A model generated the notes under the pieces. It was given only the letters and a program-made list of their open reading frames with translations. It did no database searches and was not told the origin of the DNA. 64,000 nt of DNA from Verrucomicrobia bacterium GWF2_51_19 (lineage in GTDB: Bacteria; Verrucomicrobiota; Verrucomicrobiia; Opitutales; UBA12508). The DNA lies in contig MIDP01000013.1 in NCBI GenBank assembly GCA_001831095.1, positions 2,364 through 66,363 on the forward strand, read 5' to 3'. Position numbers and translations under genes: made by a program. Positions 55,830 to 60,462 of this stretch are shown here, piece by piece; position 1 is the first letter of the stretch, and every line of letters starts with the position of its first letter.

Positions 55830-56222
55830 ATGGAACTACTGAAAAAAGAACCGGCAAACGGGAATGTGCAAAAAGGCTATGAGGCCCTGCAAAAGCAGTT
55901 TGATTTTGCAGATAAAATGCAGTCTTTGCTTAAAAAACAGGGCTACACGACGGGTACAACCGACGAGATTTTTAAAAAGTTGGAAGCTAAGGGCCTTTCA
56001 AAGGAGTCGCGCCAAAAGATCCGTGACACCATAAAAGCGATCGAGCAAGACCCTTTGCTTGAGCCAACCGGCATCTTGGAAGACTTAGAATCGAAGACAG
56101 ACAAATTGTCACTTTTCTTGGTAAAAATATCCAAAGAACAATTACGAAAAGAGCAACTTCCACAAAAACCAGCTTCGCAAGGCACTCTGACAAACGCTTT
56201 GCGCGGCCGTAACATGATTTGA
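55830..56222 (+). CDS. Hypothetical small helical protein (130 aa), occupying the LcrG-equivalent position
   Basis: Charged, predicted helical, no TM. First gene of the module. The LcrG comparison rests on position only. Confidence 0.5.
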   Translation: MELLKKEPANGNVQKGYEALQKQFDFADKMQSLLKKQGYTTGTTDEIFKKLEAKGLSKESRQKIRDTIKAIEQDPLLEPTGILEDLESKTDKLSLFLVKISKEQLRKEQLPQKPASQGTLTNALRGRNMI

Positions 56223-56234
56223 GAGGACACTTTT

Positions 56235-57950
56235 ATGGGTAACATGGATAATAAAATAAGTTCATACGAATCGACCAGTTTTTCTGACACAGAATATAAT
56301 TACCTGAAGGCCGATGAATACTCTGACGCCACTTCTGGCTCGTATAATGATCGTCAGAAAGAAATAGAAAATAAAGGACTAGAAGATTATTTCAAAAATG
56401 CATATAATGAATGGAAACAAGGGAAATCAGGCAGTGAAATCGAATACAAAGACTTCATTCAGCGCATCGGGACAGAAAGCTTTAAAAAACTGAAGGCCGA
56501 TGCTCAAGCCGATCAATTAAGGGCTAAAAGCGAAGAGAAATCGAATGCAGCGCGCATGGACGATTACAACGGCTTAGACGACACAACAAAAGAGCATTTT
56601 AAAGAAGCTTATGAACAGGCAGGCACCAGTTTATCCATGAATGCATGGATAAAGAGCCTCGACGAAGCCTCTTACAAGGGCATCAAGCGCGATGCGGATT
56701 TAAAGGAAAATAATCTGCAAGATGAGATGAAAGAGATGTATAAATCTTCCGGAACGAGTTGCCCATATTTTGAGTGGCTCGGCAGAATGTCTGGTGGAAA
56801 AACATCAGTAGACGATATCCAAAAATGGGAAGACGACAGAAAAGCATATGCAGACAACTTAAACAAGCAAAATAAAATGTATACCACCCTTGGCGATAAT
56901 GCCATTTGGGACATCGACAAGGAAATGGCTGCATGGGACAAGCAACACCCAAAACCTTTTTCGTCAACCCTTAATGAGTGGAAAGCCGTAGCCACACAAC
57001 GGTCTATGAAAGTGTCTAATGATGGCGGAGCCGTCGACACGAAAAACGCCTTTGACGATTGGATGGTCTTTAAAAACACAGAAGAGGCGGCCAATGTTTA
57101 CCGCGAAGCCTACTACAAGGCTACAGGAAACAAGGAAGATAATCCCGAACGAACACCAGCATTTCAAGCATGGTTGTTGTCACTGCAGCCTTCGGAGCGC
57201 GATGCATTGAGAACGGAAGCCGCTCCACACAAATATAACGCATCCGAAACTTTTGAGGGCATCGATGTTCGCTACGACTCGAAGACGGGTGAAGTCTTTG
57301 ATCTCGACATTAAGACATTGCGCAATAAAGGCGTCGAGGCATCGGCGATTTTGTCGTTTATTTTGGCGATTAAGGGAAAGTCTTGTGAAAACAATGCTAA
57401 AGACAAGGTCGACGAGATGGACACGTACAGCCAGATGATCAAGGACGCCAACAAGGCCCTGTCTGCGCTCAGCGGCGATACCGGCAACGTCAACAGCGAT
57501 GTCGTCGCGCTCTACGTCAAATACTACGGAAAGGACCCAACGCCGGGCTCCTTCCCATCAGCCGACGTCAACAATGCCAAAATCTCTGAACTGGTCGACA
57601 AGCTTCGCGGAATGGAAGACTTTAAAGAATTTTTCGGCCCAGATGGCAAGATCAAGGATGACGTAAAGATGAGCGATCTAGCTTCCGCACTCAGCGACCA
57701 CCGTGGCAGTCTCGACGACAATGGCCTCTGGCCATCTATTGGAACAGACGCAGATAAAATAGCAAACCGACAACAACAATGGCAAAACGACATCAATAAT
57801 TTCTCGACGGAATGCGACAAAGAGGTCCAAAACCTAACCATCGAGGCTCAGGACAAGAACAAAAAGTACGACACTTTCACCTCGACCGCTTCCGCGCTCT
57901 ACAATAAAATCATGGAGCTCGAGTTACAACTTGCTAGAAACATCAGCTGA
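56235..57950 (+). CDS. Hydrophilic coiled-coil protein (571 aa); candidate T3SS tip/hydrophilic translocator or effector
   Basis: GAGAGG Shine-Dalgarno. No TM or signal peptide. Rich in Lys/Asp/Glu/Asn. The long C-terminal helix (..QQQWQNDINNFSTECDKEVQNLTIEAQDKNKKYDTFTSTASALYNKIMELELQLARNIS) is reminiscent of tip-protein C-terminal helices. It lies directly upstream of the class II chaperone. Confidence 0.55.
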   Translation: MGNMDNKISSYESTSFSDTEYNYLKADEYSDATSGSYNDRQKEIENKGLEDYFKNAYNEWKQGKSGSEIEYKDFIQRIGTESFKKLKADAQADQLRAKSEEKSNAARMDDYNGLDDTTKEHFKEAYEQAGTSLSMNAWIKSLDEASYKGIKRDADLKENNLQDEMKEMYKSSGTSCPYFEWLGRMSGGKTSVDDIQKWEDDRKAYADNLNKQNKMYTTLGDNAIWDIDKEMAAWDKQHPKPFSSTLNEWKAVATQRSMKVSNDGGAVDTKNAFDDWMVFKNTEEAANVYREAYYKATGNKEDNPERTPAFQAWLLSLQPSERDALRTEAAPHKYNASETFEGIDVRYDSKTGEVFDLDIKTLRNKGVEASAILSFILAIKGKSCENNAKDKVDEMDTYSQMIKDANKALSALSGDTGNVNSDVVALYVKYYGKDPTPGSFPSADVNNAKISELVDKLRGMEDFKEFFGPDGKIKDDVKMSDLASALSDHRGSLDDNGLWPSIGTDADKIANRQQQWQNDINNFSTECDKEVQNLTIEAQDKNKKYDTFTSTASALYNKIMELELQLARNIS

Positions 57951-58793: not shown

Positions 58794-58812
58794 ATTTTTA
58801 GGGAGGTTCGTT

Positions 58813-60462
58813 ATGCCAGAAACATCCAACATAGAAAACACCAGAGGAATTTCACCTAACGTTATTCTGCCTGGCGACATTCCTGTCAAACAGACGGACA
58901 CGGTCAAGCTCAGCAAGGACATCGTGTTTTCAGGCGTCGACGAGGCCATGTTGATCAACCTCGATTCACTTGTTAAGCGGAAAGACTTGATCAATATTGC
59001 TCCGTCAGAAATCTCTCTGCAAGAGGCCCTTGAGAAAATTAAGGAGCTGAACGAAAGCATCGAATCCAGCACTATAACGCTCTCGGAGGATGAAATCGCC
59101 CTGGCGCACTCCATTGTTCAATCTCAAACGCAAATCCACACCCTCATTGTAGGCCTGCCGCAAGATAAGCAAGAGGCGCTCACAATGAAGTTGATGCAGT
59201 TTGTCCGCTCCGTCCTCAACGAGCAACAAGGCAAGACTGAAGTGACGGTCGTGGATTCACAAAATAACGACTCCAAACAAACCAACAACACTAAACAAAC
59301 CAACAACACTTCTAGCAAAGACTCCAAGCAATACGTCTCATCTGAAGTCTTGAGGGAGTTTTTGGAAATCCTCGGCGGCGACGTCTCTGAAGAACGCGCC
59401 AAAACCGCCAAGACAATCATCAAGTCGCTCGAAAGCCAGCTGAAATCGGCCAATACGCGTGTCAACAAGGCCCTCGATCAGCAACTTGAGGCCATGGACA
59501 AGGTCAAACGGCATCAACAACAGGCCCAGGCGCTGCAAATCGGTATTATGGCCGCTGGACTGATTTTTAGCGTGGCTACCTTCGGCACGGGCTCCGTTCT
59601 AGCTATAACGCTGGCCAGCGTCGCAATCGCTGCATCGACTGCCGAAATGGGCGTTAACTTGGGCGCCGGCAGCTACGATAAAGACACACAAAACGCCAAT
59701 GTGCTCGAAAAACTTTCCCATAAACTGAACGAGAGCGACGTCTTCCATTACTCCGTCATGGCCATCAGCATTGCCGCTTCTCTGGGAAGCAGCGCCGCCA
59801 TGTACGCTGCAAAAAAAGCTGCCCAACAGGCTGCCATAAAGGTTCAGCAAACCGTCAGCCAAATCGCCCTTCAGCAGAGCGACGATATTATGAGTGTAGG
59901 TAAGACAACTGTCGTTGCTGGCAAAGTGATCCCCGACGAAGCACTTGTGAAGCAACTGACAGAAAAGATAACAGCATCACTCAACGATCAGGGCATCAAG
60001 TCTTCTGAAAAAATCATCCAAAAACTCATTCAGGCAAATATCGACGAGGGTTTTGAAAACATCAGTCAAATGGCCGCTCAAAATGCTGGTAAAATTACAG
60101 AGGATATGATGAAGGAAGGCTTTAAATCCATCGTCAATTCCAACGTTGACGATATCTTGAATGCGATGATCGCTCAATTTGTGATAAAAATCCAACAGGC
60201 GAGCGCTGTCACACAAGGAGCTCTTGGCCTCGGTCAAGGCGTTAACACGATCTTTGAGGGCATCGCCAAAAAAGAAAAGGGGATCGCCGATGCCGCGGAA
60301 CAAGTGGGATCTGGTGCTAAAGACATCATTATGGAGTTTCAAAAACTTTGGTCGCGCGACCTGCCCAAAATGATGGAGAAGCTGTACGGCATGTACGACA
60401 CAGGCTCGCAAATGATCAAGAGTAATGATCAGACGTCACAGGAACTCATCAAAAATATATGA
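58813..60462 (+). CDS. Hydrophobic T3SS translocator-like protein (YopB/IpaB/CopB class)
   Basis: GGGAGG Shine-Dalgarno. N-terminal coiled-coil half. Central hydrophobic hairpin (IGIMAAGLIFSVATFGTGSVLAITLASVAIAASTA) plus a second hydrophobic helix (YSVMAISIAASLGSSAAMYAA). Immediately downstream of the class II chaperone. Confidence 0.7.
   Translation: MPETSNIENTRGISPNVILPGDIPVKQTDTVKLSKDIVFSGVDEAMLINLDSLVKRKDLINIAPSEISLQEALEKIKELNESIESSTITLSEDEIALAHSIVQSQTQIHTLIVGLPQDKQEALTMKLMQFVRSVLNEQQGKTEVTVVDSQNNDSKQTNNTKQTNNTSSKDSKQYVSSEVLREFLEILGGDVSEERAKTAKTIIKSLESQLKSANTRVNKALDQQLEAMDKVKRHQQQAQALQIGIMAAGLIFSVATFGTGSVLAITLASVAIAASTAEMGVNLGAGSYDKDTQNANVLEKLSHKLNESDVFHYSVMAISIAASLGSSAAMYAAKKAAQQAAIKVQQTVSQIALQQSDDIMSVGKTTVVAGKVIPDEALVKQLTEKITASLNDQGIKSSEKIIQKLIQANIDEGFENISQMAAQNAGKITEDMMKEGFKSIVNSNVDDILNAMIAQFVIKIQQASAVTQGALGLGQGVNTIFEGIAKKEKGIADAAEQVGSGAKDIIMEFQKLWSRDLPKMMEKLYGMYDTGSQMIKSNDQTSQELIKNI
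59275..59310 (+). repeat. Perfect 18-bp tandem duplication (aaacaaaccaacaacact x2) encoding KQTNNT x2 in the translocator
   Basis: Direct reading. Confidence 0.9.

Follow-up and report, generated by a model that had tools for sequence, protein, structure and literature searches.

In Yersinia, the translocon of the type III secretion system (T3SS) is encoded by the operon lcrG-lcrV-lcrH-yopB-yopD of plasmid pCD1 (locus L038 in our set), in the order small helical protein, hydrophilic tip-position protein, class II chaperone, major translocator (YopB) and minor translocator (YopD, SctB). In Chlamydiae, two translocon operons, scc2-CT577-copB-copD and scc3-copB2-copD2, are remote from the core apparatus genes, which themselves lie in several small clusters among housekeeping genes. 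In Bordetella, BtrU, BtrV and BtrW exert partner-switching control over the T3SS. Non-flagellar T3SS have been listed in Verrucomicrobia, and scattered systems in Chlamydiales (Abby and Rocha 2012, PMC3459982). Here, a four-gene block at positions 55830-60462 of a 64,000-nucleotide stretch (the window) of contig MIDP01000013.1 of Verrucomicrobia bacterium GWF2_51_19 is analysed; no paper describing it was found in the searchable literature. We consider it likely that the block is an operon encoding the translocon (tip and pore) of a non-flagellar T3SS whose genes are dispersed over the chromosome of an Opitutae/Puniceicoccales-like verrucomicrobium.

This reading is preferred because the apparatus genes sctO-P-Q-R occur in the same population (locus L028), and because Opitutaceae bacterium EW11 has the same gene order beside its apparatus genes. 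A preliminary description, made from the window alone, had offered as one possibility that the block is a translocon locus remote from the other genes of its T3SS, which these two results directly support; its term 'orphan' is wrong at the genome level. The module is most likely a very divergent but basically ordinary example of the known T3SS translocon operons.

Gene order and chaperone

The four open reading frames (ORFs) and the SpoIIE-type phosphatase gene next to them were placed correctly in the preliminary description, as confirmed by ORF calls and a match of the phosphatase to PF07228. They are as follows.

55830-56222, + strand: ORF of 130 aa (p130)
56235-57950, + strand: ORF of 571 aa (p571)
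58284-58793, + strand: tetratricopeptide repeat (TPR) chaperone, 169 aa (NCBI start at 58293, giving 166 aa)
58813-60462, + strand: ORF of 549 aa (p549)
60521-61381, + strand: SpoIIE/PP2C phosphatase gene, last gene of the same-strand run

Two closely spaced gene pairs, p130/p571 (gap of 12 nt) and chaperone/p549 (gap of 19 nt), are separated by a spacer of 333 nt. The end of p549 is 58 nt from the start of the phosphatase gene.

Judged by its sequence, the TPR protein is a class II (SycD/LcrH/IpgC-type) T3SS translocator chaperone, as first proposed. It scores 129.6 bits (cut-off 104.8; model positions 5-135 of 136) against TIGR02552 (LcrH_SycD), a curated NCBIfam equivalog model specific to T3SS class II chaperones, and it matches several TPR families of Pfam. 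Its best natural matches in the PDB are PcrH (E = 5.5e-19), SycD (5.8e-17), AcrH (3.6e-15) and IpgC (2.9e-11), each nearly full length, together with the Chlamydia SycD-type chaperone structure 4nrh_B (3e-15). Identity to Yersinia LcrH is 31.5%. A tblastn search of plasmids matched 268 records, and the matches listed are lcrH, acrH, ipgC, sicA or similarly annotated chaperones with the exception of one weak generic TPR match. In NCBI (OHE73967.1), the protein is already annotated as a T3SS chaperone of the CesD/SycD/LcrH family. The nearest relative in a large database (L042, 35% identity) is flanked by a helical protein of 118 aa and a hairpin protein with weak similarity to YopB. In the window the chaperone gene lies directly upstream of that of a hairpin protein, p549, an arrangement common to all comparator loci. 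A class II chaperone is a reliable anchor for finding hidden translocators, and profile-based T3SS annotation of such loci picks up the chaperone only.

The same four-gene order is found in EW11 (locus L056, QAYY01000002.1), a member of the same phylum whose SctR is 61% identical to that on L028. After sctU, EW11 encodes proteins of 936 aa, 108 aa and 525 aa (hydrophilic; hereafter EW11-525), an LcrH-type chaperone of 177 aa and a hairpin protein of 408 aa, at the gene for which the locus ends. The last four correspond to the 130, 571, 169 and 549 aa of the window. The two chaperones are 32% identical, the proteins at position 2 share an ungapped C-terminal alignment ending N[FI]S, and the proteins at positions 1 and 2 are unannotatable in both genomes. 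Two differences are apparent. In EW11, a canonical sctC-D..N-O-P-Q-R-S-T-U cluster includes the translocon operon, at approximately 6 kb downstream of sctU. Moreover, the 408-aa protein is a certified SseC/YopB-family translocator (PF04888, 71.9 bits; YopB, E = 1.6e-11), whereas p549 has no such match.

The parallel with the Yersinia operon that had been drawn earlier holds for gene order, protein sizes and hydropathy, but not for significant sequence similarity in three of the four proteins. In pairwise BLAST comparisons of p130, p571 and p549 with LcrG, LcrV, YopB and YopD, nothing significant was obtained, and the same was true against the neighbours of the L042 chaperone. YopB and p549 share their hydropathy layout. 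In contrast, p571 is approximately 250 aa longer than LcrV and p549 approximately 150 aa longer than YopB, no equivalent of yopD follows p549, and the window operon is far from apparatus genes and is split by repeat elements.

The Chlamydiae, which belong to the same Planctomycetes-Verrucomicrobia-Chlamydiae superphylum, share with this organism the distribution of apparatus genes and a class II chaperone/translocator operon remote from the core genes. The operons of Chlamydiae differ from the block described here in having genes for two translocators, CopB and CopD. The SctR of this organism falls among verrucomicrobial and Ysc-like SctR proteins (its identity to YscR is 52%) and has no specific affinity to those of Chlamydiae, and related verrucomicrobial clusters carry a YscC-like secretin where Chlamydiae have one like that of type II secretion systems (T2SS). 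If the preferred reading is correct, the Chlamydia-style scattered T3SS with a remote translocon extends to an uncultured, hydrogenase-bearing, probably anaerobic groundwater lineage of Verrucomicrobia. Such a system is a hint of an as yet undescribed interaction with eukaryotes, of which protists are one possibility.

Apparatus genes in the same population

DNA of the same organism was sought with a probe consisting of the 26-nt core of a repeat family (family 1, below) specific to this genome. No match was found in 596 Gb of GTDB representative genomes, which places the genome outside that collection. In the JGI metagenomes, the probe matched 36 stretches in two datasets, which are 99.9-100% identical wherever they overlap; the module of the window is present on contig Ga0209417_1001636 of one of these. 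A second record of the same population is filed under 'Opitutae bacterium'. The two metagenome-assembled genomes (MAGs) differ by one single-nucleotide polymorphism in 8 kb; therefore they represent one population, and calculation of the ratio of nonsynonymous to synonymous substitution rates between them is impossible.

A tblastn search with the Yersinia Ysc proteins of pCD1 detected a 52%-identical YscR homologue and a YscQ homologue on L028 (contig of 41.9 kb), where they belong to one short cluster.

4224-7207 of contig Ga0154578_115 (L028): sctO-P-Q-R cluster

SctR scores 269.7 against TIGR01102 (cut-off 208.6), and its FliP score (190.3) is below the cut-off of 217.5. SctQ scores 120.5 against TIGR02551 (cut-off 100.8). 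YscO (SctO; 72 bits) and HpaP (SctP; 36.7 bits) are both above their Pfam cut-offs; SctP is below the cut-off of its NCBIfam model, the other Sct proteins of L028 being above the curated cut-offs. The neighbours of the cluster are sufD/sufT at one end and an unrelated AAA_14/DUF4143 gene plus a VC0807-family gene at the other end.

L028 and the window occur together in metagenome 3300025154 and are connected by overlapping contigs that are 100% identical. The tetranucleotide correlation of L028 with the window is 0.946, compared with a mean of 0.46 for the loci of relatives, and L028 contains four copies of a second, independent repeat family that is absent from all 80 loci of relatives. The same population therefore encodes non-flagellar T3SS genes, which form a short cluster with housekeeping genes around it.

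The closest relatives of this SctR (50-65% identity) are mostly from Opitutia, Puniceicoccales, Opitutaceae and other Verrucomicrobiota, and most of their clusters have the canonical order sctN-O-P-Q-R-S-T-U. In several Puniceicoccales and gut Verrucomicrobia MAGs, however, the cluster stops at sctR and is followed by housekeeping genes, as in L028 (L045, L046, L050, L060, L062, L079, L080 and L081). The split layout is a lineage trait, because the same break after sctR recurs in several related MAGs. The linkage sctR-S-T-U, which is conserved in other Verrucomicrobia, is broken in this lineage.

These results bear on the possibility that the block has nothing to do with T3SS, and that a TPR protein and a membrane protein are adjacent by chance. 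Three of the four proteins have no family assignment, as this explanation would predict. On the other hand, the chaperone passes the curated equivalog model for T3SS class II chaperones, injectisome genes are present in the same organism, and the synteny with EW11 is conserved. We regard a chance association as hardly credible.

Candidate translocators, tip protein and phosphatase

p549 has a hydrophobic stretch of 45 residues (237-281) and a second hydrophobic segment (315-333). Their relative positions in the protein (0.43-0.51 and 0.57-0.61) are near those in YopB (0.40-0.52 and 0.55-0.62), which upholds the central hydrophobic hairpin of the preliminary description. The protein has no cysteines, and its N-terminus is rich in Ser, Thr, Asn, Pro and Ile. 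A profile of the major translocator family, SctE, was built from seven SctE proteins, each encoded just downstream of a chaperone in the fetched loci. The HHalign score of p549 against this profile is 39.2 (probability 47%, P = 2e-4), which is sub-threshold. The best alignment places residues 180-233 onto the helix preceding the first hydrophobic segment, and a second, collinear match covers residues 462-546 (score 29.5). The controls (30 shuffles, reversed p549 and other window proteins) reach at most 20.5, and true members score 45-166 in leave-one-out comparisons. In architecture, position and faint profile signal, p549 is consistent with an SctE-like protein, at a sub-threshold level. A fusion of SctE and SctB was also considered for p549 and rejected, as no region is SctB-like (HHalign 17.8, background) and both SctE matches are collinear.

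The hydrophobic stretch of approximately 45 residues may also be compared with the bilobed hydrophobic domain of chlamydial Inc proteins, in which hairpins are usually near the N-terminus. p549 could be an effector that inserts into host membranes like an Inc protein and is served by a class II-like chaperone, with p571 being another effector. The lack of a significant match between p549 and translocator families fits this explanation, as do the ankyrin-repeat proteins encoded by the same organism, which hint at interaction with eukaryotes. However, p549 carries its hairpin in the middle, with the second hydrophobic segment coming after it, exactly as YopB does, the sub-threshold profile matches are specific to SctE and collinear, and the gene directly follows that of a class II chaperone in synteny with the certified SctE of EW11. 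An effector role for p549 is therefore considered very unlikely.

p571, in the position of the tip protein, is hydrophilic and helical, with a long C-terminal helix and no hydrophobic segment. It did not match curated tip-protein families, and neither did EW11-525. The C-terminal 70 residues of p571 align with EW11-525 free of gaps through the last residue (z = 4.9 for the C-terminal 80 aa), and the C-terminus of EW11-525 resembles the C-terminal helix of LcrV (z = 4.4). When 1861 real ORFs are ranked by their C-termini, EW11-525 is placed 4th by p571; LcrV places EW11-525 2nd and p571 16th. The other top matches are mostly proteins beside translocon chaperones, and five of them form a real, unannotated family.

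L065, 15685-16200: tip-position family member
L097, 246-1256: tip-position family member
L098, 3-731: tip-position family member
L107, 411-1409: tip-position family member
L121, 17526-18050: tip-position family member

These proteins of 172-337 aa (mutual E = 1e-5 to 1e-14) are encoded in T3SS loci, beside translocon genes where these are visible, and EW11-525 joins them (E = 5e-5 to the L121 member). The conserved C-terminal helix ends GN[LIM]R in four of the five. Four members were scanned against NCBIfam and none had a match above cut-off; one member has a faint SctI-like match in its C-terminal helix. The family is possibly an unannotated family of tip or axial proteins. Against its profile, residues 350-569 of p571 align end-to-end with an HHalign score of 33.5 (probability 30%), and shuffles reach at most 18.8. 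These similarities are no more than suggestive of p571 being a tip protein in the LcrV/SctA position.

In its N-terminal half, p571 has four degenerate repeats of approximately 40 aa (within residues 51-331), in which an aromatic residue comes after the motif [FYM][KR]x[AM]Y; R2, the unit in the centre, matches the others at z = 3.3-5.7. p130, in the LcrG position, is small and helical, with no cysteines and no hydrophobic segment, and is a candidate partner or chaperone of p571. Both p130 and the 108-aa protein of EW11 end ALRxxNxI, and their pairwise alignment is not significant (z = 1.6).

As noted in the preliminary description, no second translocator gene is present at this locus, and the phosphatase gene follows p549. 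A second gene, of approximately 310-360 aa, follows that of SctE in all six comparator loci; four of the six proteins have a single hydrophobic segment, and five match the SctB profile in leave-one-out comparisons. Two of them were compared with NF038055 (T3SS_SctB), and both are above the cut-off. The SctB profile gave no match to the four module proteins or the phosphatase (HHalign at most 17.8), and no SctB-like ORF was found in approximately 300 kb of sampled DNA of the same organism. Because the T3SS genes are scattered, the simplest expectation is that SctB is encoded elsewhere in the genome.

An alternative is that the genome has no SctB, and that p549 alone, possibly with p571, forms the pore. 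The absence of an SctB-like gene from the locus and from the sampled DNA would be accounted for, and p549 is 140-210 aa longer than the comparator SctE proteins. Yet the sampled DNA covers a minor part of the genome, the genes are demonstrably scattered, and the regular occurrence of the second gene in the comparators argues for an SctB elsewhere. Furthermore, p549 aligns collinearly with SctE alone, its SctB score being at the level of background. We find a single-translocator translocon rather unlikely, and give just as little weight to its combination with a new family of large tip proteins with N-terminal repeats (p571 and EW11-525). If p549 were the sole hydrophobic subunit, this anaerobic groundwater bacterium would have a pore of minimal or alternative architecture, and a true absence of SctB would make the locus informative on the minimal composition of the T3SS pore.

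The phosphatase itself (PF07228, 152 bits) has an N-terminal coiled-coil linker. Its only detectable homologues among 80 T3SS loci are the following dCache-HAMP-SpoIIE and HAMP-SpoIIE proteins.

L051, 3927-5939 (Syntrophobacterales MAG): sensor-linked phosphatase, in the same-strand run after sctU
L098, 18070-20160 (Thalassospira): sensor-linked phosphatase, in the same-strand run after sctU

This suggests a recurrent link between PP2C phosphatases and T3SS. By analogy with BtrU, it is plausible that the window phosphatase is a T3SS regulator; in Bordetella, too, the genes of a T3SS include one for a SpoIIE/PP2C phosphatase. Whether the window phosphatase gene counts as part of the module is uncertain. 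In contrast to the Btr system, no STAS or anti-sigma kinase partner is visible near it, and it is a short form that lacks a sensor domain.

Several results weigh against the identification of the block as a translocon operon. The profile search that had been proposed for all four proteins identified the chaperone (TIGR02552) and gave no Pfam or NCBIfam match for p130, p571 or p549, the last having none in the translocator families at E up to 1. A sequence search of the PDB with p549 likewise gave no match. Homologues of p549 were found neither in a word-indexed search of 5.8 billion proteins nor in an exhaustive HMMER search of 1.84 billion representatives; p549 itself was not returned either, and the empty result speaks of other organisms. 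The homologue search with p571 returned only p571. Both HHalign probabilities, for p549 and for p571, are below any accepted threshold. The single-sequence AlphaFold models of the two proteins are all-helical but unreliable, with low predicted local distance difference test scores (39.6 for p549, 43.9 for p571). They were used for helical content only, being too poor for fold searches. In the low-confidence p549 model, a helix (193-256) runs into the hairpin, and the coiled-coil N-half attributed to this protein earlier rests solely on that model. A chaperone-binding motif, PxLxxP, was looked for in p549 and rejected, as only a relaxed form is present (PNVILP, residues 15-20), and 19% of shuffles contain one. 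At the locus, a SpoIIE phosphatase gene stands where SctB would be expected. With regard to the apparatus, only four genes are present on L028, where sctN and sctS/T/U are not adjacent, and Yersinia SctV, N, C, S, T, U, D and F gave no tblastn match in the window and approximately 300 kb of same-organism DNA (SctJ was not among the queries).

Some of these observations are what a decaying remnant would show, in which the T3SS is being lost, the module is non-functional, SctB has already gone, and the divergence of p549 and p571 reflects relaxed selection. The lack of homologues of the two proteins and of SctB at the locus, the sctO-P-Q-R cluster with an unrelated AAA_14/DUF4143 gene in the place of sctN and no adjacent sctS/T/U, and the repeat elements inserted between the two gene pairs are all in line with such decay. 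Nevertheless, every ORF of the module is long and intact. SctR and SctQ exceed the cut-offs of curated equivalog models, and the identity of SctR to relatives of functional type is 52-65%. The break after sctR, being common to several Puniceicoccales MAGs, suggests a stable architecture. A near-consensus promoter-like site is present upstream of p130, and the base composition at third codon positions (GC3) of the chaperone and p549 genes is typical of the genome. On balance, decay is an unlikely explanation, and a divergent translocon operon of a scattered T3SS is preferred.

Under the translocon reading, the products would act as follows. By binding to the N-terminal region of p549 and covering the hydrophobic hairpin of this protein, the chaperone would keep it in the cytoplasm. 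p571, with p130 as its small cytoplasmic partner (LcrG-like role), would be secreted earlier, and its C-terminal helix would hold it at the tip of the needle, in the role of SctA/LcrV. Upon host contact, p549 would be secreted through the needle, enter the target membrane and serve there as the major subunit of the pore (SctE role). The minor translocator SctB, if present, would be encoded elsewhere, and secretion may be under BtrU-like control by the PP2C phosphatase encoded downstream. The locus would then illustrate the reach of divergence in these systems, with two proteins of approximately 550 aa that have no detectable homologue in billions of sequences, and yet keep the gene order, size, hydropathy layout and terminal helices of translocon and tip proteins.

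The exact p549 sequence is absent from a collection of 15 billion proteins that does include the products of all four neighbouring genes, and the ENA, Logan and NCBI contigs carry a call of the p549 gene.

Repeats, base composition and neighbouring genes

The window holds two dispersed intergenic repeat families of five copies each. The units are approximately 65-125 nt long, resemble repetitive extragenic palindromic sequences or miniature inverted-repeat transposable elements, and often abut gene starts. Copies also flank housekeeping genes across the window, and an Rfam scan of the window, repeats included, gave no family. The sites around the module, and those elsewhere, are as follows.

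55454-55787: upstream repeat block, dispersed intergenic, with family 2 at 55549-55614 and family 1 at 55655-55778
55791-55818, + strand: sigma-70-like promoter candidate TTGACA-16-TACAAT, 11/12 consensus matches, 12 nt 5' of p130
57948-58283: spacer with two repeat-element copies, a family-2-containing element and a degenerate family-1 copy
3835-3958, 6472-6669, 8547-8668 and 15105-15226: window repeat sites
25715-25851, 54446-54544, 55549-55778 and 57948-58283: further window repeat sites

The promoter candidate is a consensus match only, with no evidence of function. In the spacer, the family-2-containing element is flanked by inverted repeats (57950-57980 and 58115-58145), and the degenerate family-1 copy ends at the start codon of the chaperone gene. 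The spacer also contains a terminator-like hairpin (58018-58033) and a weak promoter-like site (58131-58158). The p130/p571 and chaperone/p549 pairs were probably split by mobile repeats of the genome's own; the two pairs would once have been contiguous and later been separated by insertion of these elements. The repeats that were described as bracketing and splitting the module are real, but they belong to dispersed families and do not mark an island.

The description of the module as A/T-rich applies in part. Its GC content is 0.471 compared with 0.497 for the window, a marginal difference; p130 and p571 alone are 1-1.7 standard deviations low, whereas the chaperone and p549 genes are typical in both GC and GC3. 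The idea of a horizontally acquired island is accordingly supported neither by composition nor by the repeats, which are found throughout the window and the sampled contigs.

The remainder of the window contains housekeeping genes, a large polysaccharide-biosynthesis cluster and an [FeFe] hydrogenase. Scans found no injectisome gene in the 64 kb, as had been stated. The secretin at 1024-3174 resembles GspD/PilQ, and a PilN-family gene precedes it by two genes in the same-strand run, in agreement with its earlier assignment to a pilus or T2SS. In view of this gene run, and of the YscC-like secretins of related verrucomicrobial T3SS clusters, the idea that it serves as a Chlamydia-style, T2SS-like SctC was rejected.

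Within the polysaccharide-biosynthesis cluster (approximately 28.6-51 kb), the 442-aa ORF at 48042-49370 has a GC content of 0.352 and a GC3 of 0.354 and no family match. Its composition is far more deviant than that of the T3SS module, and it is probably a horizontally acquired gene of the glycan cluster. Two ORFs adjoining rpoN, at 20764-21753 (329 aa) and 22106-24247 (713 aa), have no NCBIfam match, and the GC content of the latter (0.436) is below average.

The gene cdsA (53601-54437) is just upstream of the module. In a Puniceicoccales MAG, its orthologue (L060, 4301-5149) lies approximately 1.4 kb downstream of sctR. This position may be a trace of a former linkage between apparatus and translocon genes, or a coincidence.

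On another contig of the same organism (L024, Ga0154578_143), two small helical ORFs with faint matches to axial-protein profiles were rejected as needle subunits; they adjoin a glycoside-hydrolase-like gene. Eukaryote-like repeat proteins, such as ankyrin-repeat proteins, are typical of host-associated bacteria. The same contig encodes two adjacent ankyrin-repeat proteins (4776-5773), the repeats of which were read by eye, and the first of these has a hydrophobic N-terminus resembling a signal peptide.

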